Counted from the first letter of the stretch, positions 1 to 24,276 are shown. The stretch: DNA of 31,466 nucleotides from a virus (IMGVR_UViG_2645727604_000022); one strand, 5' to 3'. Notes: generated by a model from the sequence alone, not told the origin. Translations and numbers: made by a program.

Positions 1-1335
1 ATGCGTTACAATCAATTTTCACATTACAAACGCTCCGACACTTTAGCCGGGGAGTTTATGAGATACAAGCCCAATCAATACATAATCTGTGATTCTTACG
101 GTAACTACTATTTAAGGATCACGCTGCCTGTGTATATGCAGCCCTTTTTTGAAGGAAAAAGGACGTTTGTCAGAAGTCTACACACAAGTAATCTTCGTGT
201 TGCACGTAGAAAGCGTGATCAGATTGCAGATGAATACCATTGTCTACGGGAGAGTGTCGCCCCTGTAAACAGCACAATAGAGAACACGCTGGAACTGTTA
301 CGCAGTAAGGCTAAATACGCCAAAACAGCTACCAGAATGCAAGATACAGCGTCTTCGTGTCCGTCATTGCTTAAAATTCTTGAAATCTACCTGACAATTA
401 ACAGCACGAAGAAGAAGCCAGCCACTTTAGCTAAGGCAAGAAAAGCGGTAGAGATGTTTCTCTCCTACCGTAAAAAGCCTGATATTGCATTGCAAGATGT
501 AAGCCGCACCACTGTTACAGGCTGGATTGAACACATGCAAAAAACCCTTTCACAACAATCAATTGCAAATTATATCAGCCCAATGGCCCAGCTATGGGAA
601 TTAGCTTCATCACGTTACCACGATGCGCCAGAAAGGGCGCTCTCCCCCTGGCGAGGGCATAGGCTTGATGTGGCACAAAGTAGAGAGAGCTACGAGGCAT
701 TTTCTAACAAAGAGCTATTGCAGGTGTTGCAAGTATTTTCCGGTGATTCAGCAGAAAACAAAGAAATGATGGCTTTGTGTCTTATCGGTTTATATACAGG
801 TATGCGGATCAATGAGATAGCAAGTCTCACAATAGACGATGTGAAAGAGATCGAAGGTGTGCTGTGTTTTGAAATCACACAGGGAAAGACGAAAGCTGCG
901 GCACGTGTTGTGCCTGTACATAGCCTTATCACTCCGTTGGTGTTGTCGCTGCGTGAAAAGCCTCACAATGGCTTTTTGTTCTATCACGCCAGCATTACAG
1001 AGCGTGCTGATGGTAAACGTTCCACGTGGCACACGCAGAGATTTACAAGAGCTAAACGAAAGGCTTTAGGGGAAAAGGGAACAGAAAGGAAGGTGTTTCA
1101 TTCTCTGAGACACGGAGTAGCACAGCTTCTTGATCGAAATCAAATTCCAGAAGACAGGATCGCCCTTCTCCTGGGCCATACACGCGGCAATACAGAAACA
1201 TTCCGCACATATAGCAAGAATGCAGCTTCTCCGGTAGAGCTTAAAAACTATATTGAGCTTCTACGCTACCCTGAAATAGAGAAAGGCTTATCAATCAATA
1301 AAAAATCAAATTTAAGGCGTAAAACAACACCATAG
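1..1335 (+). CDS. int: Tyrosine site-specific recombinase / integrase (444 aa; may extend upstream of the window)
   Basis: Catalytic-type motifs GMRINEIASL (Arg box), HSLRHGVAQLL (HxxR) and LLGHTRGNTETFRTYSK (Tyr) in the C-terminal half; ORF starts exactly at the window edge. Confidence 0.8.
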   Translation: MRYNQFSHYKRSDTLAGEFMRYKPNQYIICDSYGNYYLRITLPVYMQPFFEGKRTFVRSLHTSNLRVARRKRDQIADEYHCLRESVAPVNSTIENTLELLRSKAKYAKTATRMQDTASSCPSLLKILEIYLTINSTKKKPATLAKARKAVEMFLSYRKKPDIALQDVSRTTVTGWIEHMQKTLSQQSIANYISPMAQLWELASSRYHDAPERALSPWRGHRLDVAQSRESYEAFSNKELLQVLQVFSGDSAENKEMMALCLIGLYTGMRINEIASLTIDDVKEIEGVLCFEITQGKTKAAARVVPVHSLITPLVLSLREKPHNGFLFYHASITERADGKRSTWHTQRFTRAKRKALGEKGTERKVFHSLRHGVAQLLDRNQIPEDRIALLLGHTRGNTETFRTYSKNAASPVELKNYIELLRYPEIEKGLSINKKSNLRRKTTP

Positions 1336-1416: not shown

Positions 1417-2130
1417 CTATTCCTGTTTAAAGGCAGGAGTAATAGTGTCTTCACCTTCACTACTTGATTTTTCAGTGTTAACACGTTTTTTCATATTAGC
1501 CCCGATGTTCTTAGATGGCTGTGTTTTGATAGCTACAGTGTTTACAGTGCCATAAGAAACTAATCTGATTTGCTCAAAGCTAAGATCAAATACCAGGGAT
1601 TCGCTTGCCTCTTCTGTGTATTCGATGCCTGTTAAAACAACGTTCTCAAAAGTTTTATTTTCTGTAACAAGAAGAAAAGGCTGTCTACTGTCCATAATCT
1701 GATTCAGGTAATCTATAGCCAATGATCTTCTGTTCCCTGTCACCCCTGCACTCTTTAACAAGCCAGGATCGCTTTTAATCGGTGTTTCAGTGATCCTCCC
1801 TTTAAGAGAAAACTTATTATTCTTCACTTGAACGTGATCCGATACAGTAGCCCCATTCTCTACGGGGTAGCTTGTAACATCTGCCGAACGTCTTACGTTC
1901 ACATCGTCTACACTGTCAAAAGCCAGTGCCATATAATTTTCATAAACGTCATTACCAGAAGATGCCAGCCCACTGGTAACAATAGCAAAACCATTTTCTC
2001 CTTTTGTTTTATTGGCTTTGCTATTTTCGTTTTTTGTAGAGTTTATATCTTGTTCTGCTTTGTAAACAGCCTGAACGTGTTGTTCTGGAGTATTTGCTGC
2101 ACGTATGGTTAAAATCCCGGCGGTCGCCAT
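1417..2130 (-). CDS. Hypothetical protein (237 aa), last gene of the structural-like operon
   Basis: Long ORF in AT-rich DNA; no recognisable motif; SD is 15 nt from the ATG so the true start is uncertain. Confidence 0.55.
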   Translation of the reverse strand: MATAGILTIRAANTPEQHVQAVYKAEQDINSTKNENSKANKTKGENGFAIVTSGLASSGNDVYENYMALAFDSVDDVNVRRSADVTSYPVENGATVSDHVQVKNNKFSLKGRITETPIKSDPGLLKSAGVTGNRRSLAIDYLNQIMDSRQPFLLVTENKTFENVVLTGIEYTEEASESLVFDLSFEQIRLVSYGTVNTVAIKTQPSKNIGANMKKRVNTEKSSSEGEDTITPAFKQE

Positions 2131-2164
2131 AATAATAATTTTCCTTGCAATGTTATGGCGGGAA

Positions 2165-3991
2165 TTACCCGCCGTTAGATTGTCCTGATAAGCTGGTTAA
2201 TGTTAATGATTTCAAGAAGCTATCCCGACTTGCTCTCGCTGTAAAATCCACATAATCGCTTAATCTTGATGTGTCACTATTAATAGTAAGAGGAACCTCT
2301 GTTACCACTTCAAATGTAGGATTCAGATTGAATACAGGAGATAAATTATAAGCCGGAGTTGTCATTGCAAGATTATTTAAAGCACCCTGTTTGAGATTGG
2401 TTATCGGTGCTTCACTAACTGACATTTTTACATCTGACACAGAAGAATTATCATCGAAAAGCAATCCCTTAATCGTGTTAAAGAGAGAATGACTATTATC
2501 AGGTGTAGTTGTTGCAGTGCCAGCGCCTTTATATTGATCAGGAACGAGATTATCTAAATTCTTCTTCATCCCTTCATTGCTTAATGGCGGTGCATCACCC
2601 ATATTTTTTTGAATAGCATCTGTCTTATCATCATTACGATTAAACCAGTTTACAATCTTCATAATAGCTTCAAAGAGACTTCCTATAGCTTCTCCCAGCT
2701 TCGTAAAATACGGAGTGAGATTAGAAAGGTTTTTCATAAACTCTTCCGTTACTTTTGGATCGAGAGATTTCATAAACCCGTCTACGAATGCTACTTGCCT
2801 TGCATCAGAAAGCTGTGAAAGCTGTCTGTTTAGTTCTCTGAATTTAACGATAGATTCTTGCTGTGTTTCTGTTAGCCATTTTCCAGAGGCTTTTTGCTGA
2901 TTAATACTTTCTTGTACATCTTTAACGGAACGTTGCCAATATTTTGATGTAAGCATCAAATCATCGCCCAGATCTTCTAAACGTTGTCCAATTTGAGAAT
3001 CTGAAAACCCTTTTTTCATCATTCCATTAACAGCCTTAGAAATTAATCCGGCTGGATTATCAGCAAATTTTTTAAGGTCGCTTTTGTTAATAACACCGAT
3101 GTTTAGAAGTTCATTAATAGCGTTATCACCGCCTTTCCATTCAGATTTTCCTTTCTTGTCTTTCACCAATTCAGCTTCACTATAGGATTTTGCGGCACGT
3201 TCACGCACATCTTTCATCTGATCCAGGTATTTCCTAGCCCCTTGATCACCCATCATAGAGTCAACGCCGTTTCTATACGCCCATTCTGTAATATTATACA
3301 TCTGGTTAACGTCTACACCGCCCAGCCTTGCACGTTGAATTAGCTCCCCTTGCGTTTCAGCATTCGCAAAGCTGTTAGCCATAAATTCAGAGGTTTTACT
3401 AACAGCCATCACGCCAGCAGCCGCCGTAGCGCCTCCAAATAACAGAGCGCCCATAGTGGCGGAATTCCCTGCTCCTCCCTTAACGGGGGCTAATTGAGCT
3501 TTTCTGTTGCCATTAATCTTACGTTGTTGCTGTTGTAAGCGTTTCATCTGACTATTCATACGTGCAAGCGAGATAGCCCCTTGCTCATATTGTTTTGCTA
3601 TCTCTCTAGCCTGTGCAATAGCTTTATATTGTTCAGCTACAGAGAGGCGGTGCATTGCACTGATAGAGCTTGACACATCAAGGAGCTTTAATTCTGCTTT
3701 CTCTTTACGTGCTGCTATTTGTTGCTGTTGCCTTGCCTGTGCTCTTGCTGCGGCAGCTTGTGCTCTTTGATTTTGCTTTTCTGTTTTGGCTTTTTGCTGG
3801 GTAATCTTGTCTACTTCACTTTGTGCTTTCTTATAGCCTTTAGTGACGCTATCAAATCTTAATTTAGCTGGCTTGATGTTTTCTGCGAATTCCTTTAAGC
3901 CTGTAATAGAGTCTTTCGCTTTTTTTAAGCTGTCTTTATCTACACTAAATGTAACTGTGTTCTTAATTTTAGAAGTGTTAATTTCTAACAT
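2165..3991 (-). CDS. Hypothetical coiled-coil / glycine-zipper protein (608 aa), tape-measure-like or ejection-protein-like
   Basis: Q/A/R-rich coiled-coil stretch (QRAQAAAARAQARQQQQIAARKEKAELK), hydrophobic Gly-rich segment GALLFGGATAAAGVMAVS; SD AAGGGG 7 nt before ATG. Confidence 0.7.
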   Translation of the reverse strand: MLEINTSKIKNTVTFSVDKDSLKKAKDSITGLKEFAENIKPAKLRFDSVTKGYKKAQSEVDKITQQKAKTEKQNQRAQAAAARAQARQQQQIAARKEKAELKLLDVSSSISAMHRLSVAEQYKAIAQAREIAKQYEQGAISLARMNSQMKRLQQQQRKINGNRKAQLAPVKGGAGNSATMGALLFGGATAAAGVMAVSKTSEFMANSFANAETQGELIQRARLGGVDVNQMYNITEWAYRNGVDSMMGDQGARKYLDQMKDVRERAAKSYSEAELVKDKKGKSEWKGGDNAINELLNIGVINKSDLKKFADNPAGLISKAVNGMMKKGFSDSQIGQRLEDLGDDLMLTSKYWQRSVKDVQESINQQKASGKWLTETQQESIVKFRELNRQLSQLSDARQVAFVDGFMKSLDPKVTEEFMKNLSNLTPYFTKLGEAIGSLFEAIMKIVNWFNRNDDKTDAIQKNMGDAPPLSNEGMKKNLDNLVPDQYKGAGTATTTPDNSHSLFNTIKGLLFDDNSSVSDVKMSVSEAPITNLKQGALNNLAMTTPAYNLSPVFNLNPTFEVVTEVPLTINSDTSRLSDYVDFTARASRDSFLKSLTLTSLSGQSNGG

Positions 3992-4002
3992 TTAAAATCC
4001 CC

Positions 4003-4206
4003 TTAATCATTTTTACCACCTTCTTTACTTAAGAAATGGTGTAGAGCCTGATCAATACTCTCGTTTAATCTGAACATACGGGCTTTTACTCCTTCATATG
4101 GAACATCTAAGAGAGAACAGAGATATTTCAGATTTAACAAGCCTCTAGAATCATTAGCATCTAAATGAACGTGTACACCATTTTTTGATTTCAGAATCAC
4201 TTCCAT
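4003..4206 (-). CDS. Hypothetical small protein (67 aa)
   Basis: ORF with SD GAGAGGTGA 7 nt upstream, sits directly after the terminator that follows the 342-aa gene. Confidence 0.45.
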   Translation of the reverse strand: MEVILKSKNGVHVHLDANDSRGLLNLKYLCSLLDVPYEGVKARMFRLNESIDQALHHFLSKEGGKND

Positions 4207-4227
4207 ATTTTAATCACCTCTCAAAAT

Positions 4228-4274
4228 TTAAAAAAAAAATAAAAAAAAGGCGAAGCGTGAATACACGCCACGCC
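4228..4274 (-). terminator. Intrinsic terminator downstream of the 342-aa gene
   Basis: On the minus strand: hairpin AGGCGTGGCGTG-TATT-CACGCTTCGCCT followed by a long U-run (plus-strand A-run 4228-4247). Confidence 0.5.
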
Positions 4275-4293
4275 TCTATTACACGTTAAAATA

Positions 4294-5322
4294 TTATTTA
4301 ACAGTGATTTGAACGGAGAAGCCTACACCGTGGTTTACAACCATCTGGCTATTCTCTGTAACAACGTTAACAGCATCACCACGAGAAGATTCATAGCTGT
4401 AGCTGTACACCTCAGCAGGAGCGGTATTAATCAGTTCAAAAGTGCTGGAAGCCGCCCCATAGATGGCCTGGTAGACGTTAGAGCCTTTAGCGAATTTAGG
4501 CACGGCTACAGCGTCAGCGGTCATATGTGCAAGGTGTAGCGGATCTACCAGTTTAATAACATCAATGTTAGTTCCTGGAATAGTGAACGCTGTCACCCCC
4601 GGTAGCAGGTCACGACGCTGATACACAACGTTTCCCTCTTCCAGTGGGCTTACATACTGGAATGCGTTTGCCATACCAGCAGAGAATCGAATTGCAGAGA
4701 AGGCTTCCGGCTTACAGAAAACAACAATACGCTCTACAGCAGCCGCCTGGCTTTGTGCTTTTTCGATAATGTCAGTAGCAATCTGATCAAATTCTTTAAA
4801 AATCTTCGTGGTGTCAGTGCTGGAAGCGTTCACAGTGGCTTTCATAGCTGATACGTTAAACAGCTTGCCCCATTCGATAAGAACATCATCAGTTTTAGGC
4901 GTGTAAGTTTTACCGCTAAACAGAGATGCAGCCAACACGCTCTCTTTTGTACGCTGATACGCTACGTGGTGTTTAGCAACATAGTCAGCATAGATATCAG
5001 TGAGTGTTTCCTGAAAATCAGTGCCTGGCTTACGTTTGCCTTGAACATCAGAAGGACGGATCACATCTTCACGAAGAAAATACGGGATTTCAATCAGCCA
5101 TTCTTTACCTTGTTCTCGCTTAGTAACATTGTGTTCAGAAGAGAAACGAGAGGTTTCTTTGTTGAACAGAGATTCGTTGCTTTCGACAAGCTGGGAAACA
5201 GCTACTTTATGAGAACTAACGCCCACCGGATCAGTGAAGTCGAGGGTAGAGAGCAGATAGTTTCTAGTGCTATGCGCAGAGAACAAAGGGGCTAAATCAA
5301 CGTAATCATTACCTAGAATCAT
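4294..5322 (-). CDS. Hypothetical protein (342 aa), probably an abundant structural protein (capsid-like guess only)
   Basis: Long ORF; helical N-terminal half and beta-rich C-terminal half; followed by a strong terminator as is common for highly expressed structural genes; no diagnostic motif. Confidence 0.7.
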   Translation of the reverse strand: MILGNDYVDLAPLFSAHSTRNYLLSTLDFTDPVGVSSHKVAVSQLVESNESLFNKETSRFSSEHNVTKREQGKEWLIEIPYFLREDVIRPSDVQGKRKPGTDFQETLTDIYADYVAKHHVAYQRTKESVLAASLFSGKTYTPKTDDVLIEWGKLFNVSAMKATVNASSTDTTKIFKEFDQIATDIIEKAQSQAAAVERIVVFCKPEAFSAIRFSAGMANAFQYVSPLEEGNVVYQRRDLLPGVTAFTIPGTNIDVIKLVDPLHLAHMTADAVAVPKFAKGSNVYQAIYGAASSTFELINTAPAEVYSYSYESSRGDAVNVVTENSQMVVNHGVGFSVQITVK

Positions 5323-5340
5323 TTATTATTATTCCTTTTA

Positions 5341-5703
5341 TTAAGAAGTGAAAACCGTATTAAAGCCTTCAAGCTGGAAGCCTTTTTTAATTAATGCTGT
5401 TTTTGCTGCTTCACTTACAGCATTCAGGGCATCAGCTTTGATGCATACAAGCCCAGCATTGCTACGTAGCACATCTACAGGCTTGTTGTCTCCAGCCGTT
5501 ACAAATTCACTCATAACAACATAGATATCATCTCCTGATTCATATTTAGCGCCAGTGCTGGTGATCAAGTCTCCGCATTCAACATCAGCAGGAAGAGAAG
5601 CAAAAACCTTGCTTTCTACAGAGGCAAACGGATCAGTACAATAAGCCACCAGATCTGTAAACGTCTTTCGACTTGGAAAAAGAGCGTCTAAATCAATAAT
5701 CAT
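5341..5703 (-). CDS. Hypothetical protein (120 aa), immediately upstream of the 342-aa gene
   Basis: Strong SD TAAGGAG 8 nt before ATG; start overlaps the stop of the upstream 70-aa ORF. Confidence 0.6.
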   Translation of the reverse strand: MIIDLDALFPSRKTFTDLVAYCTDPFASVESKVFASLPADVECGDLITSTGAKYESGDDIYVVMSEFVTAGDNKPVDVLRSNAGLVCIKADALNAVSEAAKTALIKKGFQLEGFNTVFTS

Positions 5704-5912
5704 TTAGTAATCTCCTTAGCTTTTAATTTGATTAATTCATTAAGGGAAGGTGTAGACGGAGAAGAAGGAGAAAAATATTTTTCAACACATCTTTCTACTT
5801 CCTCTACAGAACACCCAGCGTATTTAGCTACCATTTCGGTAATTTGTGGATTAATTTTCAGCATTTCATCTTTATACTTGATGATTTGCTCTTTATCATT
5901 TAAGAACAACAT
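5700..5912 (-). CDS. Hypothetical small protein (70 aa) with SPSSPSTPS linker
   Basis: ORF translationally coupled to the next gene; weak SD. Confidence 0.45.
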   Translation of the reverse strand: MLFLNDKEQIIKYKDEMLKINPQITEMVAKYAGCSVEEVERCVEKYFSPSSPSTPSLNELIKLKAKEITK

Positions 5913-6035
5913 TTATATAAACCTTGTTACCTTGTTTAAAGTAAGAAATACAACTTTTAAGTTGCATAACGGGCAAAATAAAAGGCAGCATTTAAAGCCG
6001 CCTTTTATTAACTCATACCTATGTAATTACCCTAT

Positions 6036-6065
6036 GTTATGCATACTCCAAGATGTATGCATAAC
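6036..6065. promoter_or_regulatory. Perfect 11-bp inverted repeat GTTATGCATAC-N8-GTATGCATAAC (candidate operator upstream of the structural-like operon)
   Basis: Read directly from the sequence; lies in the 343-bp gap between the 6256-6621 gene and the 5912 start. Confidence 0.35.
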
Positions 6066-6255
6066 AAAGGAAAAAAGAGGTAATAATGACACTTAAGGAG
6101 GAGGAGAAGCGGGGAGCGGAGATTTTACTCCCCTTTAATGACAGGAAGAATTTTTAATATCGAACCAACAAAGGAAAAATAATCACCCTATATAATTATA
6201 TTAACATACAATAGATGAAATGTCAAGATATTTTACAACTTTTTTGTTGCTTTTT

Positions 6256-6621
6256 TTATTCTTCTGTGATAGCAGCGCCTAAGCGTTGAGCTAGTTCAAC
6301 AAGTCCGTCTCCTACATAGCGAACGTCCGAGTAAATACCTTCTATCCAGTTTGATAGCTCCCATATCTGATCCGCTGTCAGATATGCGTTCTCACTCTTA
6401 CAGAGCATCTCTACACGCTTACAGAGCATCTCAAAGGCATTCACAGCTAAATCCCAGTGTTTAAACGCCTCATTTAGTGCCGCTGGCGTGTTTTCTTTGT
6501 ATGCTTCAAGTTCAGCACGGTTTAAAGGCAGGAGGTAATCATCCTCATAATAATTAATTAGTGAGTAAATTGTGTCATACGTGTTTTTGTTCATATTAAA
6601 AGTCTCCATAGTGATCAACAT
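6256..6621 (-). CDS. Hypothetical protein (121 aa by ORF; likely start at the third Met, 6594)
   Basis: GGAG 9 nt before the ATG at 6594; contains an in-frame 21-bp tandem duplication (EMLCK repeat). Confidence 0.55.
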   Translation of the reverse strand: MLITMETFNMNKNTYDTIYSLINYYEDDYLLPLNRAELEAYKENTPAALNEAFKHWDLAVNAFEMLCKRVEMLCKSENAYLTADQIWELSNWIEGIYSDVRYVGDGLVELAQRLGAAITEE

Positions 6622-7006
6622 TATCCAGAATCTGGAATTCAGGAACTAAATTATTTAGGCCATTGGTGGCGAGATAACCAACGTAGTGATTATAATCTTC
6701 AAATCCTAAAATCTGGTATTTGCGTAAATCAGAGCTATCAACAATATACTCTTTTCTTTTTCTAGGTTTCCAGAATACGCCAGGTGTTGAAGATAAGATT
6801 TCTTGTAATGCGATATATTCATCTCCACAAGGCACAGAGGGAGAATGTTCTATGATCTCTGTTTTCCATTCGCCAGGGGCGCTATTATGCTTGGTGAGCG
6901 TAACTAGCTCTTTAAAGTCTTTACGTCTTAGAATAGATTTAGGTTTACTTAGAAGAGAAGCTGAATCACCGATCTTCTTAACAACATTGTTTTTTCTTTT
7001 TGCCAT
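6596..7006 (-). CDS. Hypothetical protein (136 aa) with basic N-terminus
   Basis: ORF in the minus-strand replication/regulation operon; N-terminus MAKRKNNVVKK. Confidence 0.55.
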   Translation of the reverse strand: MAKRKNNVVKKIGDSASLLSKPKSILRRKDFKELVTLTKHNSAPGEWKTEIIEHSPSVPCGDEYIALQEILSSTPGVFWKPRKRKEYIVDSSDLRKYQILGFEDYNHYVGYLATNGLNNLVPEFQILDNVDHYGDF

Positions 7007-7135
7007 TTATTTTTCCTTTTCTTTTAAAGGAAAACACCCCGAAATATGTTTCTAACGTGAGAAAGAACAATAACCAATACATAGCTACTATCATAATAAT
7101 GTTTTCCTTTTATATTTTAATTACATAGAGAGATT

Positions 7136-7414
7136 TTAGAGAGTGGAATAGATGAATTCTATTTCTTTATCTAGTCTTTTGAGATTGAATGTAGAGAAAG
7201 ATAATTCTTTAATTTCTATAACACCGAAGTTTGATAGCTGTTTAAGCCAGAATTTTAAACCATCTTCAGAGCACCCTGCTCGATGTAACACATCGCTATA
7301 TTTTAGCGGTGTTGGCTTTCCTTTATAGAGGTAAGCAAGTGTTTCGTAGATGCGTTTTCCTGTGTCATTACACTGAATTCTGTCTACTTGATTTTTTACT
7401 AAATATTGAATCAT
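7136..7414 (-). CDS. Hypothetical protein (92 aa)
   Basis: ORF directly downstream of the HTH replication-like gene. Confidence 0.5.
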   Translation of the reverse strand: MIQYLVKNQVDRIQCNDTGKRIYETLAYLYKGKPTPLKYSDVLHRAGCSEDGLKFWLKQLSNFGVIEIKELSFSTFNLKRLDKEIEFIYSTL

Positions 7415-7425
7415 AACCCTCCTTA

Positions 7426-8115
7426 TTAAAATGGAATATCAAAGTCATCATACACATTTGGGTAATTCTTAGAAAAATATGCCTCAATACCATTTGGTAG
7501 CTTTAACCTGTGCTTATAGGCTAACGATGTTGCAAATTCTATAAATGATGCTCCTCCTGTTCTGGTATTCTTCTGCTTGATAATAAGAGATGCAAAATTC
7601 TCTAACACATCCTCCTCATTATCATTAGCTACCTTTTCACTTGATGAAACAGGTGTTTCTTCCGTCTCCCACGGCAAAGGCGCATCCCAATCATCAAGAA
7701 CATCAAAAGAAGGCTGTTTATGGCCTTTAGGTTGTTCCTGTGCTTCTTCTGCCTCAGAAAGATCAGAGAGTGATGATTCTCCTGGGGGAGTAATATGTGC
7801 ATCTGTGAGAGGGAGAGCATTGTAAATCAAAGATGAAATATACGGATCAGGATGTGGGGATGTTTCTAATAATCCCATCTCTTTAAGATCGTTTATCTTA
7901 CGTTTAATTGTTGACGCTGAAGACTTAAAAATCTTAGCTAATGTTTCGTGACTTTCATAACAATTAAGGTTGTTTTCCTGATAACTAAGGAATCGAAAAT
8001 AAAGCACAATATGTAATAGATCTAAATCTTTTCCTTGAGGGAATTTATCAGAATAAATCTTTGATACATTATCAAACGTGTCATAGTGTTTTGTAAAAGT
8101 TAGTTGATTAATCAT
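7426..8115 (-). CDS. Putative replication initiator / replisome-organizer-like HTH protein with SSB-like C-terminal tip (229 aa)
   Basis: HTH-like segment HETLAKIFKSSASTIKRKINDLKEMGLLE, acidic disordered middle, extreme C-terminus YDDFDIPF (E. coli SSB ends DFDDDIPF). Confidence 0.6.
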   Translation of the reverse strand: MINQLTFTKHYDTFDNVSKIYSDKFPQGKDLDLLHIVLYFRFLSYQENNLNCYESHETLAKIFKSSASTIKRKINDLKEMGLLETSPHPDPYISSLIYNALPLTDAHITPPGESSLSDLSEAEEAQEQPKGHKQPSFDVLDDWDAPLPWETEETPVSSSEKVANDNEEDVLENFASLIIKQKNTRTGGASFIEFATSLAYKHRLKLPNGIEAYFSKNYPNVYDDFDIPF

Positions 8116-8166
8116 TAAAAATCTCCTTATAAATCACGCTTAATGCGCTACTAAAGTGAATGAGGA

Positions 8167-8334
8167 TCACTTACCCTTTTTTTGTTTGATGTTCTCTGCT
8201 GCTTCAGTAATGATTTCTAACATCAAATCACTGACCATAATTTGCCTTTTCTTGGCTTCAGCAAATAAAACCTTGAAGATTTCAGGGTCAACGTGTAGGT
8301 AAGTGCGCGGAATTGGTTTCTTAGTTTCGCTCAT
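8167..8334 (-). CDS. Small ribbon-helix-helix-like (CopG/Arc-type) putative regulator, 55 aa; not in the ORF track
   Basis: Hand translation MSETKKPIPRTYLHVDPEIFKVLFAEAKKRQIMVSDLMLEIITEAAENIKQKKGK; SD AAGGAG 7 nt upstream of the ATG at 8334. Confidence 0.45.
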   Translation of the reverse strand: MSETKKPIPRTYLHVDPEIFKVLFAEAKKRQIMVSDLMLEIITEAAENIKQKKGK

Positions 8335-8353
8335 AGTTTTCTCCTTCTATTCT

Positions 8354-8542
8354 TTACTCTGTTTCAGATTCTTTTTCATTTTTTCTTAGTTCATCAATAA
8401 TCTTGAGTGCTTCATTGAAGCAAGCTGCTCGCTCTGGATAACCTCGACTCCTTGCCATATTACGATTCATTACTACTTGATGGCGTGTAAGCTCACCTTT
8501 TTTAAATGCCTCTACGACGTGTTTCGGTGTAAACCATTTCAT
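8354..8542 (-). CDS. Hypothetical small protein (62 aa), first gene of the minus-strand operon
   Basis: ORF with a candidate sigma70 promoter about 100 bp upstream. Confidence 0.45.
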   Translation of the reverse strand: MKWFTPKHVVEAFKKGELTRHQVVMNRNMARSRGYPERAACFNEALKIIDELRKNEKESETE

Positions 8543-9660: not shown

Positions 9661-9769
9661 CGCCGGAAGGCAAAAGATCATATATATATATAGATATAAA
9701 GAATATTATTATTATGATCTAATTAATAATCTAATATAGTTTTATTAATAGTCTTATTGTAGTTCACAG

Positions 9770-9845
9770 TGACCTACCCCCTAGCTCACTATGACCTACC
9801 CCCTAGCTCATAGTGAACTACCCCCTAGCTCATAGTGAACTACCG
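9770..9845. repeat. Iteron array: about 3.5 tandem copies of a 22-bp unit TGA(C/A)CTACCCCCTAGCTCA, next to an AT-rich tract (9660-9760); candidate replication origin
   Basis: Units start at 9770, 9792, 9814 and 9836 (22-bp period); the preceding tract is almost pure A/T including ATATATATATATAGATATAAAG. Confidence 0.6.
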
Positions 9846-10318: not shown

Positions 10319-10426
10319 ACCAAATGAATACATCTAAATCGTGTAATATTCCGTACCTATAAGGCTTGAAACAGACCAAATGAATACGATATACTCATTT
10401 GCATTGGAGTAGTGCCAAATCGATAC
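10319..10426. promoter_or_regulatory. res-like recombination / autoregulatory site upstream of the serine recombinase gene
   Basis: Three direct copies of ACCAAATGAATAC-like 13-mer (10319, 10375, 10414); the middle one forms a 25-bp palindrome CAAATGAATACGATATACTCATTTG. Confidence 0.45.
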
Positions 10427-10440: not shown

Positions 10441-10980
10441 ATGAGCAATATCGGTTATAAGCGTGTGAGCACTGTAGATCAGAACACTGATCGCCAGCTT
10501 GCAGGAGTAACGCTTGATAAAGTCTTTGAAGATAAGCTGTCAGGTAAAGACACTAACCGTCCAGGATTGCAGGCGTGTTTATCCTATCTGAGAGAAGGCG
10601 ACACCTTACACGTGCACTCTCTCGACCGTTTAGGGCGTAACACCTTAGACATTCTTGCCTTAGTGGAACAACTTAATAATCGAGGTGTAATTGTTCGATT
10701 TCATAAAGAAGGGATCATTGCAGACATTACAAGCGCGATGGGAAAAATGATGCTTACGATGTTGTCGGCAGTTGCAACGTGTGAACGTGAACTGATGTTA
10801 GAGCGTAAACGAGAAGCGCAAGCCGTCAATCCTACAAAGCGTGGTAATGGAAAAGCAGTAGATAGAGAAGGTATAAAGAAAGCCCTTTCTGATGGCCTGT
10901 CAGTGCGTAAAACCGCCGAGAGCTTTAATGTTGCTCCTTCAACGGTACAGCGAATTAAGAAGGAAGAAGAGGAGGCGTAA
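10441..10980 (+). CDS. Small serine recombinase (resolvase/invertase family), 179 aa
   Basis: N-terminus MSNIGYKRVSTVDQNTDRQ with catalytic-Ser context, FEDKLSGKDTNRPGL and GDTLHVHSLDRLGRN match the Hin/resolvase family pattern; SD AAGGGGA upstream. Confidence 0.9.
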   Translation: MSNIGYKRVSTVDQNTDRQLAGVTLDKVFEDKLSGKDTNRPGLQACLSYLREGDTLHVHSLDRLGRNTLDILALVEQLNNRGVIVRFHKEGIIADITSAMGKMMLTMLSAVATCERELMLERKREAQAVNPTKRGNGKAVDREGIKKALSDGLSVRKTAESFNVAPSTVQRIKKEEEEA

Positions 10981-10996
10981 TGCCTCCTTGATATTT
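10970..10996 (+). terminator. Putative intrinsic terminator overlapping the recombinase stop codon
   Basis: Hairpin AGGAGGC-GTAAT-GCCTCCT followed by a T-rich tract. Confidence 0.45.
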
Positions 10997-11421
10997 GGGG
11001 ATTCTGGATTTTCCAGATCGGGGGGCGCTGAAAATCGCGTTAAGCACCTCTCGCAATCTAGCCATAAGGGAGGGGATTCATATGTATTTAGATGTATTTA
11101 TAGCTATTTATGGCTATTTATGGCTATTTATTTTTTATTTATCTTTATTTAAAAATAACCTTATAAATCAATAAGATACAGAACTATCTGTTTATATTTT
11201 AATCAATTAAATCAAGTTTAATACCCTTAAATACCCTAAAAATAGCCTTAAATACCCCAATAATTAATTTTAAGGCTTTCCGTGTTCTCTTCTGCATTAT
11301 GAAAATGCAAAATAAGGCACAAAACAAGCTCACAGACGCATTAAACACACATCACCTATACACCCCTATACCAAGCAATGAAAACAGCGTTAGAATGCGT
11401 CCTGTTGCGTTCTGGAGATTT

Positions 11422-12183: not shown

Positions 12184-12202
12184 AATGGTGCCGATAATAG
12201 GA
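12184..12202. repeat. attL: 19-bp copy of the tRNA-Thr 3' end
   Basis: Identical to 30021-30039. Confidence 0.6.
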
Positions 12203-12263
12203 ACAATACACATAGGCGATAAGCTTTGTTTTTGTTGCCTTTTTTATTGTTCATTTTTTATAG

Positions 12264-12288
12264 ATACCCCCAAAAGTACCCCCATATC
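12264..12288. repeat. Tandem TACCCCCA half-site motif ATACCCCCAAAAGTACCCCCATATC, left-end copy (candidate integrase arm-type site)
   Basis: Near-identical copy (21 of 22 positions) at 29889-29913 in the same orientation. Confidence 0.4.
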
Positions 12289-12313
12289 TTTTTCCGCCCC
12301 TGAAATTTGGTTG

Positions 12314-12725
12314 TTATTCATACAGCATATCAGGCGGTAACGCTCTCCCTTTAACCCACTTATTGTATGATAGTGCTATCCCACAATAAGGAATCAGCCA
12401 GCCATGAGAATGACCAGCCGCAAAAAAGAGATACTTAGCTACTTTGAACCGGATAACCTCGAATGGGTGACTGGTGAGATTGGTGCGCCGCCCATAGTGG
12501 CGTGATTGCCGCGTTACCCATGCTTTCATCCTCACCCCATACGCGATACTCGCTACCTGGATCACCTTTACGCCCTTTCTCGAACATATACAGGTGTTCG
12601 TCATTCCAGCCAAAAGCTAACTGGATCACGGCATGAAGTTTACTAAAGGGGATTTGCTCTGGAACCAGCACACGCCGCCATATAGGTGGTTTGCTGTCTC
12701 GGATGGTTATCTTTAGCTGGTACAT
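12314..12725 (-). pseudogene. Frameshifted gene resembling the pRiA4b ORF-3-like family
   Basis: N-terminal frame MYQLKITIRDSKPPIWRRVLVP...AFGWNDEHLYMF continues in a second overlapping frame carrying YLFFAAGHSHGWLI; family assignment is from memory. Confidence 0.45.
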
Positions 12726-12845
12726 GCAAATCCTGAATAAATGCGAATCGGAAGGATAACGATACTGACGTACTCACAATTCTGTAAAGGTGAATAAAGG
12801 AAATTTGCTTAATACGCATAAGTTACATGTGGAATAATCCCATAT

Positions 12846-13031
12846 CTACCTGCGCGGCGCTGGCTTCTTCCACTGGTAGGCAGGTGCTCGCATCATTTCG
12901 CGGAACCTGTCGCGCCGGGCTATATCGGCATTAACTGATCGTTCTATCTCCCGTTGATCTGCCTGTGTAAGCTGATGGCCTCCGTGCTCAAGTTTGGCGA
13001 TGGTCAATAAGGCTATTTCGCGTGGTGTCAT
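12846..13031 (-). CDS. Hypothetical small protein (61 aa)
   Basis: ORF with SD AGAGGG 8 nt upstream. Confidence 0.35.
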   Translation of the reverse strand: MTPREIALLTIAKLEHGGHQLTQADQREIERSVNADIARRDRFREMMRAPAYQWKKPAPRR

Positions 13032-13328
13032 ACGTCATACCCTCTGGAAGAATGAAACACGCCCGGATTAAATTTCATTTTTCGCGGGTATAAAAAAACG
13101 ATGGGGCGGGCAGTCCCGGATAGTCAGGGCTGTAGAGATTTGACTACCCCCTCCCCACTGGATTCAGGTTACTGCTATTCCGTTAAGCGCTGCTTACGGG
13201 GATAGCTGCGTTGTGATTTTGACCATTCAGGTCGCCGCTATTTCCTCACCGATTGGGTGCTACGCGCGCGCGTACTTGTCCCGAAATACCAGAAACCGCC
13301 AGCCAGAGGATGATTTCCCTCTGGTGGT

Positions 13329-13610
13329 CTACCTTTGCCTCTTGCCGCCATTTAACCGGAAGGCGTTACCGTTCGGTTGCGCTATCCCCATGCGGTGTTG
13401 CGTTTCGGTAACAGCTTTATGCAGGTCGCCAAATTCCTCAACCTTCACGGGCGGGCGCTTCACGTTCTCCAGACACGTTTCACGGCGGCGCTTTATCCAT
13501 TCCCGATCATCGTCCTCGGTGCATAACAGCATGACTTCCATCCATCGTGCGGCAGCTCTCCGGTATAGCCCTTTTGACTCCAGCTCTTCAGCTTTCCTGT
13601 CCCTTATCAT
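13329..13610 (-). CDS. PerC-family-like small transcriptional regulator (93 aa)
   Basis: N-terminus MIRDRKAEELESKGLYRRAAARW resembles the PerC/Pch family as recalled; SD GAGAGG 7 nt upstream. Confidence 0.5.
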   Translation of the reverse strand: MIRDRKAEELESKGLYRRAAARWMEVMLLCTEDDDREWIKRRRETCLENVKRPPVKVEEFGDLHKAVTETQHRMGIAQPNGNAFRLNGGKRQR

Positions 13611-13640
13611 TTCTGCCTCTCAGATTATATAGATAAGCAA

Positions 13641-13770
13641 AAAGGTGTTGGTTCAGTTGGTTCAGTTGGTTCAATTTGTAAAGATTGTTGTTTTTATTGT
13701 GTTTTTTCTGAAATATTGAACCAACATCAACTCATTTTGAACCAACACAGCCCAGCTCTGAACCAACAAC
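13641..13770. repeat. Iteron cluster IR-L: three tight GTTGGTTCA repeats then three spaced TGAACCAAC repeats
   Basis: Reverse complement matches cluster 20679-20799, including a 43-bp perfect terminal match. Confidence 0.65.
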
Positions 13771-13869
13771 ACAGCGATAGATTTGTGATTGGTCCGTTAT
13801 TTTCTGGCTGATATTTGAGCGTATAACAGTGTTATACAGTGGTATACTGTATGGATATTACTCACTGAT

Positions 13870-14325
13870 ATGGTCTTTGCAATGAGCAAATCTAATCTGG
13901 TCGCGTTCCGCATCCCATCTGAATTGCAGGATGAGTTTAATCGGTCTGTTCTCGCTTCTGGAGGAGATAAAACCTCCTGGCTTGTTGATGCGATTCGCAT
14001 GAAGCTGGGGCAGCCGGAAAAGTCTATTGATTCACGAATGCTTGGGCTGGTGGAGCGCATGGAAAAAGCCGCTGCGTCGCTTATTGCCGGAAAGCCGAAC
14101 ATCCCACCAAAACCATATAACGAAACGGCAGTTATAAAGATCATTGCCGATACCATCCAACAGGGATTTGATAATGGGCGTGTGATAGCTGAACGGATCA
14201 ATGAAGCAGGCTATCAAACAAAAGCTGGTAAAGCGTGGGATAAAGATATTTACAGCGCGTGGAAGCGTCAGGGAAGCAATGCTGAAAAGCTAAAAGCAGT
14301 GATTGATTGTAAGGTCAGCGTATAA
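13870..14325 (+). CDS. Mnt/Arc-like ribbon-helix-helix domain protein with C-terminal extension (151 aa)
   Basis: RHH-like N-terminus SNLVAFRIPSELQDEFNRSVLASGGDKTSWLVDAIRMKLG; no clear SD. Confidence 0.55.
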   Translation: MVFAMSKSNLVAFRIPSELQDEFNRSVLASGGDKTSWLVDAIRMKLGQPEKSIDSRMLGLVERMEKAAASLIAGKPNIPPKPYNETAVIKIIADTIQQGFDNGRVIAERINEAGYQTKAGKAWDKDIYSAWKRQGSNAEKLKAVIDCKVSV

Positions 14326-14404
14326 ACATGAGTGCCCATTGGAAAGTTGCTTGGGCCAATACCTTTATACACCAGCAGGTAGTGACGATAGGTGAGGATC
14401 AGAT

Positions 14405-14626
14405 ATGAAAGGCAGAACGCCACACATTGAACATCAAGCCAACCACTTCCCTGATGTTCGCAATGAGATGATTGCCATTCGCGGTGATATGCACGGATTG
14501 GAGCGTCGAATTATTGATAAGATTGATGAAAATAGAGATAAGGCCAGTGAAAATCAAAAGTGGATCATCGGCCTGTTGATTTTATCAATTCTTATCCCGC
14601 TACTTATCGCATTGGTCACAAAATGA
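14405..14626 (+). CDS. Small protein with C-terminal transmembrane anchor (73 aa)
   Basis: SD GAGGA 9 nt upstream; C-terminus KWIIGLLILSILIPLLIALVTK. Confidence 0.5.
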   Translation: MKGRTPHIEHQANHFPDVRNEMIAIRGDMHGLERRIIDKIDENRDKASENQKWIIGLLILSILIPLLIALVTK

Positions 14627-15146
14627 ATATCCAATGTGTATGCTGTCGATGCTACGCGCGCGTACTTGTCGCAAAATATCAGGCAAAGGCCAGATTCAGA
14701 AAGTCGTGATAATCACCAGCACAACATGAGATGTCATGTAACGCGATTGATCACACCAGATACATGTGATGGTGTACCCGCATAAAACATCGTCATAGCG
14801 CGTCCTGTGCGCACATACGCCGATAATCAACACATCACCACCACTCTGTCTCGTGTAGAGAACAGTTTCATGGTATCCCCCGCCATCGTGTGCGTACTGG
14901 TCGGACGTGGTTGCAAAATTTTTGCAACTGATACCCCTCGCGCGCGTACTGGTCACGAAATTGGTGTTTTGCTGTGGCAGTGATATCAGAAAAATCTTCC
15001 TGTTTCACATAAAGCGGATATGCGCGTACTGTAACGACCCCATCAACGGGATCGGATTTGAAATCCTGACCCAAGCTATGTACCAAATGCCATGTCTTGG
15101 ATATATGATGATTGCCATTCTAAACAAAGCTAAAGGGAGGGTTGGT

Positions 15147-15503
15147 GTGAGGGGGCAGGCAGTTATAATTATTTTGTTGGGTTTAATTGTCGCAAAGTTA
15201 TACCCGACTTTATCGATGGTGTTTTTTGCCATTATTGGCGCAGCCATCTTTACTTATATCATTAAACATACCGCCTTGTGGTTCTATAAAATTGATATAG
15301 TTCAGAAGTTTGTACGTCCTGTGTCGATGTTATTACTAGCATTAATACCAATTGGTGTTGCTTATGTAATTGATGTTTTTTACCCTTCGGACACTGAAAG
15401 GTGGTTGATAGTTTTGTATTGTTATATTGGTGTAGCTCTCTTTTGTGGATTTCATTGGTGTTTCGAAAAGATCAATGACTCTATTTCAAAGAATAAAGAT
15501 TGA
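15147..15503 (+). CDS. AT-rich small integral membrane protein with four predicted TM helices; candidate immunity / superinfection-exclusion protein (ORF track frame opens at 14907; start here assigned to GTG 15147)
   Basis: SD GGAGGG 6 nt before GTG; four hydrophobic helices; about 37% GC on sampled lines versus about 63% in the adjacent 705-aa gene. Confidence 0.6.
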   Translation: MRGQAVIIILLGLIVAKLYPTLSMVFFAIIGAAIFTYIIKHTALWFYKIDIVQKFVRPVSMLLLALIPIGVAYVIDVFYPSDTERWLIVLYCYIGVALFCGFHWCFEKINDSISKNKD

Positions 15504-15517
15504 GGCCATCCGTGGCC
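15504..15517. terminator. Short hairpin between the convergent membrane-protein and 705-aa genes
   Basis: GGCCA-TCCG-TGGCC hairpin; weak flanking U-runs. Confidence 0.3.
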
Positions 15518-15522
15518 ATTCA

Positions 15523-17640
15523 CTAGTCATTATCTGGATCATTAGATAGCCAAGTAATGATGCCCAGTCTGGCGATGGTCCGTTTTTCCTGTTCAGGAAG
15601 AGAGTTAAAAAAACTCTTCCATTGAGGGGAGCGCCTGATACGTGAATCAACAATGTGCCCAGGCGCTTTTCCGTGTAGATTTTTTACTGCGCTCTGGAAG
15701 GCTGGCGAGGCAATTAATTTATCCGCAGCATCAGCCGCCCCTGCTCCACCAGCTAATCGAGCTTTACTCGCCAATCTTGCTCCAATATCAGCCCCAGCAA
15801 TGGCTCCAAGCGATCCAAAATGAGCGCCTACCATCGTGCCTATTTTTTGAATGTGTTTTGCTGCTAGTTCGTATGGAGCTGTTACCCGATTAAATCTGTT
15901 TACAAACTCATTCAGCTTACCAGTAGATATTTCATGCGCTTTAGCATTTTTTATTGCTCTGGCAACTTTGTATACATCATATAGTCCGCTCATTGTTTCT
16001 TTTGGCAAATGTTCAGCCAAAGTCTTTAGCTGTCCACTGTGTTGCAAGTTTTGCCACCAATCTGCAAAGCCAGATGGATTAAAGTCGGCCCCACGCTTCC
16101 CAGAGGAAAGCATATCTCTTAATGCTGTTCCTACTAGCTCCCTTCGCAATGTTCTTGATGGAGTATTTTGCATAATCTCACGAAACCCTCTCGCATCACC
16201 TTTTGCCATAGATTGAAGAGAATTCGTTACTTTATACGCTATATCCCCATTAAGTGTTTTCCCGCGAAGATTTACCATTTGCCTTTCTAAGTTTTTTCTC
16301 ATAGCTACAAGGCGTTGTGCGACTTCGAAATCTCGCAAGTATCCAGTATTGGATAAGACAGATTTTTGGTCTTCAGCTAAAGCTCCATATAGTCTTGATA
16401 GCGCTTCTTTATCAGCATCTTTGTATGGCCCCTGCTTTTTATTTAGGGCATCACCAACTAAACGCCTTTGCCTGTTTAAATTTGCATACGTTAGGATTCT
16501 ATCTGGGCCGGGGTTTATTGCTGTAAAAACTCGCTTTTCTATTGGGTCAAGATTATCCCACCCTCCTAAATCATCAGCGATTTTTTCCAGCATAGTGCTT
16601 GTGTTATTTGCTTCGACTTTTGTTCTTGGTGATAGAGCGGAATCAACACGTTTATATAACTGATCACTACGGTTTTTTAGTGCTTCCATTCTACTATTTA
16701 TCTGATAAATATATTTTTCGCTCATAGCTAACGCATCTGGCGCACCAGCAACATCATCGATTATCTTGCCAGCACTAGAGGCTAATTCGCTTATTGCTTT
16801 ATCTTCTTGAGCTTTTAACGCTGATCCTGTCCGTGACTTTAGGGCTTGCTCTACAGCTTGGTATTGCTCATTTCCTGATAAATGAGAAGGAAGAACTGAA
16901 TCAACATGAAGCCTATTTGCAGCCTCAACAATTTCTTTCTGAGGTTTTAGATCTAGCCCTTCAAGCGAAGAGGCAAGATTTGGGTTGCCTTGTGCAGATA
17001 ACTTACGAATTTTCTCTTCGGCAGGAGTAATCCCCTCAATATCTGGAATCGAAGAAACATTCTTCTTGGTTAATTTCCCAGCTATTTTATTAATTGCAGG
17101 GCCAGCAAGTTCGGCTACAGGGCCAGCCACAGCGCCAATAGCAGCGCCGGAAGCAACATCGCTATTTGTTCCATTGGCTACAATAGCCCCTTCTCCAGCA
17201 CCAAGCCCTGCGGCGGCAGCCAGTCTTGCCGCCCCTTTGGGAACCTGAGAAATAATCCCACCACCACTAACAAATGGCGCTGCTTGTCCAACGAACTCAC
17301 CAACATCTTGTGCGGTTGATGGTTTTGCCGCTAACTTCTGCTGTAGAGACTGAATTGCGGCTTGCTCTTCTGGTGTCATATCCTGAAACAGGCCAACACC
17401 TTTACCAACATCCATCAATCCACTGAGAACGCCATACATAAAACGGTCGAAACCGTTAGCATTATTAACAACATTTTCCTGTCTGGAATTTTCCTCTGGT
17501 GAAACCAAAGGTGATTGCTGCTGTTCTGGTTGGGCATCAAGCACAAAACCATCAGGAAGCTGTGAACTATCAGGAAACTGTGAGTTATCAGGTTGTTCAT
17601 CGAGCACAAAACCTTCCGGTAAGATTACATTTGCTGCCAT
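15523..17640 (-). CDS. Hypothetical large Gly/Ala-rich coiled-coil protein (705 aa), last gene of the LexA-box operon
   Basis: N-terminal repeats PEGFVLDEQP / PDGFVLDAQP, long Gly/Ala zipper segments, no P-loop or nuclease motif found. Confidence 0.75.
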   Translation of the reverse strand: MAANVILPEGFVLDEQPDNSQFPDSSQLPDGFVLDAQPEQQQSPLVSPEENSRQENVVNNANGFDRFMYGVLSGLMDVGKGVGLFQDMTPEEQAAIQSLQQKLAAKPSTAQDVGEFVGQAAPFVSGGGIISQVPKGAARLAAAAGLGAGEGAIVANGTNSDVASGAAIGAVAGPVAELAGPAINKIAGKLTKKNVSSIPDIEGITPAEEKIRKLSAQGNPNLASSLEGLDLKPQKEIVEAANRLHVDSVLPSHLSGNEQYQAVEQALKSRTGSALKAQEDKAISELASSAGKIIDDVAGAPDALAMSEKYIYQINSRMEALKNRSDQLYKRVDSALSPRTKVEANNTSTMLEKIADDLGGWDNLDPIEKRVFTAINPGPDRILTYANLNRQRRLVGDALNKKQGPYKDADKEALSRLYGALAEDQKSVLSNTGYLRDFEVAQRLVAMRKNLERQMVNLRGKTLNGDIAYKVTNSLQSMAKGDARGFREIMQNTPSRTLRRELVGTALRDMLSSGKRGADFNPSGFADWWQNLQHSGQLKTLAEHLPKETMSGLYDVYKVARAIKNAKAHEISTGKLNEFVNRFNRVTAPYELAAKHIQKIGTMVGAHFGSLGAIAGADIGARLASKARLAGGAGAADAADKLIASPAFQSAVKNLHGKAPGHIVDSRIRRSPQWKSFFNSLPEQEKRTIARLGIITWLSNDPDND

Positions 17641-20055: not shown

Positions 20056-20071
20056 GCGATGCCATCCATTT

Positions 20072-20233
20072 TCACATACAGCCTGCCAGCGCCTTATCTA
20101 TTAACCCTCGTGCAATTTCATGCAGAGTTGGCGCTACTCCAATTCCTGATTTTTTACGCTGCTCTTCCTGAATTTTCTTTATCGCTTCCATTTGCTTCTC
20201 ACTTATCAATACCGGCTTTACTGAAATAGCCAT
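20072..20233 (-). CDS. Small RHH-like putative regulator (53 aa), first gene of the operon; not in the ORF track
   Basis: Hand translation MAISVKPVLISEKQMEAIKKIQEEQRKKSGIGVAPTLHEIARGLIDKALAGCM; GGGGG 5 nt before ATG. Confidence 0.45.
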   Translation of the reverse strand: MAISVKPVLISEKQMEAIKKIQEEQRKKSGIGVAPTLHEIARGLIDKALAGCM

Positions 20234-20248
20234 AACGCCCCCTTAGAA

Positions 20249-20799: not shown

Positions 20800-20817
20800 C
20801 TACGCACATGAAGAAGC

Positions 20818-24266: not shown

Positions 24267-24276
24267 GGCTCCATCC

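Follow-up and report, generated by a model that had tools for sequence, protein, structure and literature searches.

A structural operon with homologues in phage phi92

We analysed a 31,466-nucleotide (nt) stretch of DNA catalogued as viral (IMGVR_UViG_2645727604_000022), called the window throughout, and focused on the operon at positions 1417-5912, which an earlier sequence-only reading had described as structural-looking but without a clear affiliation. The operon is part of a 12.4-kb island bounded by attachment (att) repeats. Its six co-oriented open reading frames (ORFs), named here by their length in amino acids (aa), were recovered exactly as that reading had placed them, all on the minus strand:

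5912-5700, minus strand: ORF70, 70 aa, first gene of the structural operon
5703-5341, minus strand: ORF120, 120 aa, putative capsid decoration protein, directly upstream of the capsid gene
5322-4294, minus strand: ORF342, 342 aa, HK97-fold major capsid protein of the lambda-E family, as assigned from profiles and a model
4206-4003, minus strand: ORF67, 67 aa, small helix-turn-helix-like protein, encoded immediately before the tape measure
3991-2165, minus strand: ORF608, 608 aa, tail tape measure protein, as assigned by homology
2130-1417, minus strand: ORF237, 237 aa, tail-tube initiator (Dit-like), as assigned by homology

In the sequence-only reading, no match of the 342-aa protein to the lambda E capsid family was recognised from motif order. 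The Pfam family Phage_cap_E (PF03864), however, matches residues 19-341 of ORF342 with 55.8 bits (cut-off 22.9), and when a profile of the ORF342 family was compared with the PDB, the best match, over the full length, was Phi92_gp124, the major capsid protein of phage phi92 (E 1.7e-18). The check for an HK97 fold that the reading had proposed was run with Foldseek on an AlphaFold2 model (pLDDT 70) and turned out positive, with matches to the capsids of PhiTE, Bas63, Sf14, ICP1, and lambda (E 1e-16 to 1e-8, TM ~0.65). On these profile and model matches, ORF342 is a major capsid protein of the lambda-E/HK97-fold type, and assembly into a shell is predicted for it. Its ratio of nonsynonymous to synonymous substitution rates (dN/dS) is 0.08-0.13. 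ORF342 is only 22% identical to the major capsid protein of Justusliebigvirus, a genus of phi92-like phages, and no capsid protein more than ~27% identical to it was found among 50,697 phage records, suggesting that its gene represents an old, satellite-specific lineage rather than a recently acquired phage fragment. Across island lineages, identity of the tube initiator to the phage protein ranges from 49 to 80% while that of the capsid protein stays at ~22%.

The same reading had noticed no recognisable tail genes, which proved incorrect. ORF608 matches the tape-measure family PHROG 16051 (1e-53), and ORF237 matches the Pfam family Dit_like (PF21821; 4e-29, 101.8 bits against a cut-off of 24.2). 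The description of the 608-aa product as a coiled-coil/Gly-zipper protein agrees with its Q/A/R-rich helical stretch and a Gly/Ala-rich hydrophobic segment at residues ~170-200. In the PDB, ORF608 matches Phi92_gp134 (21vq_V, E 6e-39). Compared with the tape measure protein of Justusliebigvirus, it is 51 aa shorter, is 29% identical across 447 aa and 55% identical across the N-terminal 66 aa, and is encoded by a gene whose first 87 nt are 86% identical to the phage tape-measure gene; its dN/dS is ~0.2. ORF237 matches Phi92_gp135 (21vq_N, E 1e-77) as well as the PhiTE-type "Tube initiator protein" 9cuy_K (E 2e-13) and Pam3 gp17 (E 1e-6). It is 60% identical to the tube initiator of phi92-like phages, and within its gene positions 2022-2100 show 91% DNA identity to the tube-initiator gene of phage EC_OE_11. 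The two genes adjoin each other in the same order as in the phage. From this homology, ORF608 is a tail tape measure protein, which is predicted to set tail length, and ORF237 is a tail-tube initiator. The tube initiator of phiTE makes up the first of the hexameric rings in the inner baseplate hub, around the tape measure (PMC11972413), and ORF237 may have the same structural role by analogy.

The gene pairs gp123-gp124 and gp134-gp135 of phi92 and Justusliebigvirus are mirrored in order by the 120/342 and 608/237 pairs of the island. The likeness extends to the sequence of three of the four island proteins, whereas ORF120 has no detectable similarity to gp123. In the phage, ~7 kb of neck, sheath, tube, and chaperone genes lie between the two pairs; all of these genes are absent from the island. 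Three of the six operon products are thus homologues of chains in the solved phi92 entries 21uy and 21vq, and on this ground the suggestion of the earlier reading that the operon might encode non-virion effectors is not supported.

A candidate decoration protein

The position of ORF120 matches that of phi92 gp123, which precedes gp124 and is a capsid chain in PDB entry 21uy related to head stabilisation/decoration protein; in lambda, the D gene likewise lies upstream of E. The ORF120 family is restricted to these islands, with a dN/dS of 0.17-0.23. Its top Foldseek matches are mostly small decoration chains (Bas63, Sf14, phi29 gp8.5, SHP/gpD, and DUF2190), but they are weak (E 0.03-0.3, TM ~0.3) and derive from a mediocre AlphaFold2 model (pLDDT 61). 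Alignment of the ORF120 family to phi92 gp123 with hhalign was negative (probability 2%), pairwise BLASTP against the phage neighbour also revealed no similarity, and sequence-family searches returned no match. It is therefore plausible, but not established, that ORF120 is a capsid decoration protein.

Operon signals and small proteins

Two further features named in the sequence-only reading were also observed, namely AAGGAG-type Shine-Dalgarno sequences (before ORF120, ORF342, ORF67, and ORF608) and, right after ORF342, an intrinsic-terminator-like 9-bp GC-rich hairpin with a long T-run (4276-4252, minus strand). Terminator-like sites also follow the capsid gene in the islands of Serratia and Sodalis. 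At the 3' end of the operon, a hairpin lies between ORF237 and the convergent integrase gene. Upstream of the operon, motif and fold analysis revealed the following region:

5968-6226, minus strand: promoter, leader, and terminator upstream of ORF70

The promoter is a near-consensus sigma-70 promoter (TTGACA-17-TAATAT with a TG-extended -10; 6226-6198, minus strand), and a structured leader of ~225 nt between it and ORF70 ends in a strong terminator (~6010-5975). The fold of the E. coli leader reaches -65.9 kcal/mol (z = -6.0 versus shuffled controls). This layout recurs in Klebsiella, Serratia, and Sodalis islands with leader sequences that cannot be aligned. The four divergent lineages have in common a perfect TTGACA -35, a 17-nt spacer, a TG-extended -10, a leader of 200-380 nt, and an intrinsic terminator; equivalent layouts were located at 8937-9329 of L005, 8815-9224 of L007, and 8980-9322 of L008. 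The structural region of the related phages uses the same promoter style. The arrangement suggests candidate control by terminator read-through or antitermination, or else a small RNA.

ORF70 is small and acidic, its position in other island lineages is taken by proteins of 66-74 aa, and it gave no Pfam, PHROG, or NCBIfam match. ORF67 shows no similarity by pairwise BLASTP to the phage gene at the same position; members of its family have weak helix-turn-helix matches in Pfam, and the family alignment looks helix-turn-helix as well. Candidate roles for ORF67 are regulator, excisionase, or packaging-specificity factor.

The island and its replication module

The extent of the island was defined in a genome that contains only this island (L001), in which the att repeats lie at 3894-3912 and 16270-16288 and the right repeat sits in the tRNA-Thr gene (thrW) next to proA. 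The left att site lies outside the window, whose first position is ~107 bp from that end of the island. The remaining features of the island are as follows:

1-1335, plus strand: tyrosine integrase (Pfam Phage_integrase); in L001 it is annotated as a 425-aa protein beginning near window position 58
6256-7414, minus strand: ORF121, ORF136, and ORF92, island-specific conserved core genes
7426-8542, minus strand: replication/regulation module of ORF229, ORF55, and ORF62, with PHROG replication-initiator matches
9760-9844: putative replication origin, four 22-bp palindromic iterons beside an AT-rich stretch
10441-10980, plus strand: Hin/Gin-type serine DNA invertase (Pfam Resolvase 1e-33; PHROG DNA invertase)
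10988-11062: non-coding patch shared with phages, with a 42-nt core at 11021-11062
12184-12202: right att core, an exact 19-nt copy of the tRNA-Thr 3' end; the other copy is at 30021-30039

ORF229 resembles winged-helix replication initiators (Rep), and in E. coli islands that are otherwise near-identical, a change of Rep allele goes along with a change of iteron sequence. A Rep that is at least 92% identical is accompanied by TAGNTCANNNTGANCTA-CCCCC iteron units, whereas the islands with a 52%-identical Rep allele have ACAGAATTCTGTTAGACACCCCC iterons (arrays at 9760-9844 of the window, 1517-1600 of L017, 5523-5606 of L021, and 5525-5588 of L016). Since the iterons change with the Rep allele, as expected of a Rep-origin pair, exchangeable replicon cassettes are indicated, and the island appears to have its own replication module of Rep and iterons with a predicted function in its replication.

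As the earlier reading had noted for the operon, portal, terminase, and protease genes are missing, and this holds for the whole island when searched with Pfam, PHROGs, NCBIfam, and PADLOC. Neither were scaffold, sheath, tube, baseplate-wedge, fibre, or lysis genes of the island detected in four libraries of hidden Markov models. PADLOC found no known defence system in the island, no operon or core gene belongs to a named NCBIfam family, and an Rfam scan of the island gave nothing credible. In RefSeq, island genes are labelled "major capsid protein", "phage baseplate protein", and, mostly, "hypothetical protein". ORF121, ORF136, and ORF92 had no family match in Pfam, PHROGs, PADLOC, or NCBIfam, and no homologue of ORF136 or ORF121 was detected in the 50,697 phage records by tblastn; the three proteins are candidate assembly or interference factors. 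The invertase gene is variably present among islands. A 16-nt inverted repeat (94% complementary; 10324-10339 and 11086-11101) brackets this gene and the phage-shared patch, and may either delimit an invertible segment or have arisen by chance in AT-rich DNA.

Sequence exchange with phi92-like phages

Among phages, the tube initiator (58-60% identity) and the tape measure (~36% in the aligned pieces) are closest to proteins of Justusliebigvirus, followed by those of Phapecoctavirus. Both genera belong to Stephanstirmvirinae and have genomes of ~146-151 kb, and their records come from sewage or faecal isolates. As far as is known, phages of both genera are strictly lytic. Outside the operon, ORF55 is 100% identical (53/53) to gp185 of phage inny, positions 8108-8346 of the window share 99.6% DNA identity with phage muut, and ORF229 is 32% identical to inny gp184, the product of the gene adjacent to gp185. 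We also observed that inny gp184 contains two winged-helix repeats like that of ORF229, and that ORF55, which looks ribbon-helix-helix-like by eye, is represented in other islands by an allele of ~45% identity. Many Justusliebigvirus genomes contain, in single copy and amid tiny, probably spurious ORFs, a site identical to the 42-nt core of the shared non-coding patch. No stable RNA fold was predicted for the patch (z = -0.18), and the core is a candidate for a common cis-acting site, such as a packaging site (pac), an origin (ori), or a promoter. Patches that are nearly identical between island and phage require recent recombination inside the same cell.

Two records named "Campylobacter phage A150/C3" (MG065639 and MG065656; 146,366 bp) share a 46-nt non-coding patch at 95.7% identity, and the C3 record has the same tape-measure match as the Justusliebigvirus phages of E. 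coli. These records may be mislabelled or represent contaminants.

Distribution and conservation of the island family

Relatives of ORF342 with 37-98% identity and an invariably similar length (341-348 aa) were found only on Enterobacterales chromosomes, including those of E. coli (a cluster of 2,818 sequences), Klebsiella, Citrobacter, Enterobacter, Cronobacter, Kluyvera, Buttiauxella, Serratia, and Sodalis. Klebsiella, Serratia, and Sodalis keep the order of a ~70-aa gene, a ~120-aa gene, the capsid gene, a ~60-aa gene, and a 616-650-aa tape-measure gene next to an integrase. This ordered set, with the tube initiator present or not, also adjoins an integrase in E. coli, Citrobacter, Kluyvera, Buttiauxella, and others. 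In a gene presence/absence matrix over 35 island loci, the core consists of the capsid protein, ORF120, the tape measure, and ORF136, and the Rep/ORF55 module is freely exchanged among near-identical islands. The structural genes are all intact and of conserved length, with a dN/dS of 0.02-0.25 where dS is unsaturated, and no pseudogenes were seen in the operon. The island occurs at a query coverage of at least 80% in 147 of the 5,426 complete E. coli genomes.

An exhaustive profile search revealed a continuum of further capsid relatives (92 clusters at E <= 1e-10). Among the genomic contexts of three intermediate relatives, the trio of a ~110-aa gene, the capsid gene, and a ~60-aa gene was present in all three and a 580-690-aa tape measure near the capsid gene in two (P0149 and P0156); only the P0149 element, which is att-bounded and ~12 kb long, showed an integrase. 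In L041, L043, and L045/L046, the genes of the distant capsid proteins (E 1e-33 to 1e-58 to the family profile) are preceded by the ~110-aa gene and followed by the ~60-aa gene. L045 and L046 (11,966 and 11,964 nt, 36% GC) encode a 581-aa tape measure, a protein of the Pfam family Phage_phiTE_211, and an integrase; L041 encodes a 691-aa tape measure and a phiTE_211 protein, and L043/L044 contain neither a tape measure nor an integrase within the available sequence. Metagenomic contigs of the L045/L046 type are not circular and end ~10 nt outside a 20-nt att repeat; these breaks, observed in two independent sequencing runs, hint at heterogeneity between occupied and empty sites.

Comparison with known satellites

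The lytic myovirus ICP1 is parasitised by PLE, a satellite with tape-measure and baseplate hub genes of its own, the products of which were both detected in PLE virions, and with a predicted tail assembly chaperone; it forms tails 10 nm shorter (PMC12987554). The island shares several functional and architectural features with PLE. Both are small integrated parasites (presumed, in the case of the island) of a large lytic myovirus with a lambda-E-type capsid; both have their own replication initiator and origin and lack terminase and portal; and both encode a tape measure with an adjacent inner baseplate/hub protein, distantly to moderately similar to those of the helper. The tape measure is shortened by 95 aa in PLE (10 nm) and by 51 aa in the island (~8 nm predicted). 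However, PLE steals the ICP1 capsid protein and shrinks the shell with the external scaffold TcaP (PDB 8g1r), whereas the island encodes its own HK97 protein. The island also lacks a recognisable tail assembly chaperone, and the host and helper lineages differ. The integrase of PLE is a large serine recombinase, while that of the island is a tyrosine recombinase.

Like the cf-PICIs of Enterobacterales, which combine satellite HK97 capsids with borrowed helper tails and in some cases have putative tape-measure genes, the island encodes an HK97 protein of its own. The cf-PICIs encode a small terminase, portal, protease, capsid, and head-tail connectors, whereas the island has the capsid protein and one or two small partners; the presumed helper of the island is a virulent myovirus, and that of cf-PICIs is temperate. 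A parallel in the capsid is Ccm of SaPIbov5 from Staphylococcus aureus, a capsid homologue 24% identical to that of the helper, which forms the pentamers of small capsids (PMC8569155). The satellite proteins in the two systems are ~22-24% identical to the helper capsid. Ccm, however, works with a temperate siphovirus, and in the island a tail-core module and a putative private decoration protein accompany the capsid gene. Mycolicibacterium EPIPs have been reported to carry major capsid and tape measure genes and to alter tail length (PMC12822802). Although the capsid protein and the tape measure are both satellite-encoded in EPIPs and the island, EPIPs also possess a small terminase, a scaffold, a head-tail adaptor and stopper, and a serine integrase, and exploit a prophage; the two are unrelated in host and gene content. 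The island unites ideas of these four systems in a much smaller gene set.

Membership of the island in established classes was rejected for cf-PICIs, as of their complete head/packaging module only the capsid protein is present, for P4-like satellites, as no ORF of the island had a Sid/Psu/Delta or alpha primase-helicase match in Pfam or PHROGs, and for classical PICIs, whose defining genes are absent.

A second satellite (Element B, 12203-30039) occupies the tRNA-Thr att site of the island in tandem with it. This element encodes an integrase (28643-29857), an Ant-like antirepressor, and a 919-aa primase, and its region 15523-20055, with ~90% DNA identity to phage Kapi1, contains P22-type gp7/gp20/gp16-like ejection proteins and a DUF2824 protein. 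Element B corresponds to EcCIMP1, a published PICI that Kapi1 mobilises (PMC11773190). Each of the two satellites has its own copies of proteins that exit the virion before the DNA (the tape measure in the island and the ejection proteins in Element B).

A probable satellite building chimeric virions

Considering the homology and gene order described above, we regard it as fairly probable that the operon serves as virion module in an integrative satellite, ~12.4 kb long, of lytic phi92-like myoviruses; the satellite would build chimeric virions in a PLE-like manner. Judging from protein and DNA similarity, the helper is most likely a member of Stephanstirmvirinae, mainly Justusliebigvirus. The sequence-only reading had already considered a minimal capsid set of a satellite; its satellite part is favoured by the att-flanked island, the integrase, the replicon, the ties to lytic phages, and the lack of other virion genes, but half of the module is a tail core, which it had missed. 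Upon helper infection, the island would be switched on, possibly by way of phage-style sigma-70 promoters, the shared regulator ORF55, and transcription that reads through the leader terminator in front of the operon, and would then excise and replicate from its own origin. Its DNA would be packaged by the terminase and portal of the helper into a small shell made of or nucleated by ORF342 and probably stabilised by ORF120. This head would be joined to a chimeric tail, in which the satellite tape measure and tube-initiator ring replace those of the helper within its baseplate, tube, and sheath, so that helper parts would be diverted and helper yield probably lowered. The size of such particles can be estimated from phiTE, which holds ~142 kb in a T=13 shell (PMC11972413). 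When capacity was scaled as T^1.5 and the phi92-type genome of ~148 kb was assumed to have a phiTE-like shell, 12.4 kb would correspond to T of about 2.5, hence a shell with T=3 or T=4. The 51-aa-shorter tape measure, at ~1.5-1.6 Å per residue, would shorten the tail by ~8 nm.

Several points weigh against this proposal. The sole basis of the helper assignment is sequence similarity, and the decoration assignment of ORF120 draws on weak fold matches. A scan of IMG/VR for free forms of ~12 kb found only copies inside larger contigs predicted as prophages and no virome sign of excision, replication, or packaging of the island. The island has no small terminase, pac-redirecting factor, portal, scaffold, or protease, and a capsid protein of only 22% identity would have to engage the portal and scaffold of the helper. 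Besides, the tube initiator, which is present in most lineages, is missing in several (Klebsiella, Serratia, and Kluyvera) and is thus not essential to the family.

Other explanations can be considered. One is that the satellite capsid protein co-assembles with that of the helper, for example as pentamers, and forces a small T without a private shell, as Ccm does. Because neither scaffold, portal, nor protease is encoded, helper head proteins would be needed anyway, and an identity of 22% to the helper major capsid protein is in the same range as that between Ccm and the phi12 capsid protein (24%), which co-assemble. However, the private putative decoration protein beside the capsid gene, which is unlike phi92 gp123, fits a shell surface made of island protein, and the ~22% identity of the capsid to every phage major capsid protein, compared with 49-80% for the tube initiator, suggests that few helper contacts constrain it; we therefore consider such redirection unlikely. 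Alternatively, the island might be a defence island that poisons assembly, its capsid, tape-measure, and tube-initiator homologues serving as dominant-negative decoys that wreck phi92-like particles while the island itself remains unpackaged. The integrase, att sites, and autonomous Rep/iteron module argue against it, as do the dispersal, with exchange of modules, to numerous genera and integration sites (a pattern typical of transferable satellites), the conservation of a full-length capsid gene and its partner from E. coli to Serratia (dN/dS ~0.1-0.2), and the lack of PADLOC matches. In its support, neither a packaging-specificity gene nor a portal or scaffold was detected, the N-termini of the tail proteins still resemble those of the helper, as they should if these proteins dock onto helper partners, and interference with tail assembly is known in satellites and prophages (PMC11364771) as well as for Rta of PLE. 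Interference and self-packaging are not mutually exclusive, however, and PLE does both; as a sole function, assembly poisoning likewise seems unlikely.

It might also be supposed that the operon is left over from a decaying prophage and has no present function, considering that most island genes are "hypothetical" in RefSeq and that IMG/VR pipelines call the region prophage. Yet the related phages are lytic viruses of ~146 kb for which no integrated form was seen, a close copy of the capsid gene was found in none of the phage records, and the compact gene set is intact in many genera, free of operon pseudogenes and with the conserved ORF lengths and low dN/dS noted above. Such a remnant is highly improbable and was rejected on the grounds of purifying selection and conserved compact architecture.

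Implications

It is possible, at close to even odds, that the island is the E. coli member of a widespread, undescribed superfamily in Enterobacterales and beyond that parasitises large virulent myoviruses, and in which four to six genes give a private small capsid (HK97 and decoration proteins) and a private tail core (tape measure and tube-initiator ring) on a stolen virion. No description of the island family was found in open-access papers and bioRxiv (full text, including a search by RefSeq protein accession). Satellite finders built on P4, PICI, cf-PICI, and PLE signatures probably miss the family. Satellites of strictly lytic phages have been well characterised mainly in Vibrio (PLE and PICMI), and, to our knowledge, satellite-encoded tape measures were demonstrated only in 2025-26. 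If the proposal of a chimeric-virion satellite is true, the island would combine the strategies of cf-PICIs and PLE in one minimal element and provide a PLE-like system in a genetically tractable host. It would also represent a hidden host factor that limits phi92-like phages, a group from which phage-therapy isolates are often obtained, and would allow lytic phages to drive gene transfer. Moreover, it would offer a tractable model for why satellites replace the tape measure and hub, and for how a small shell may be built from a single capsid gene on a foreign portal.

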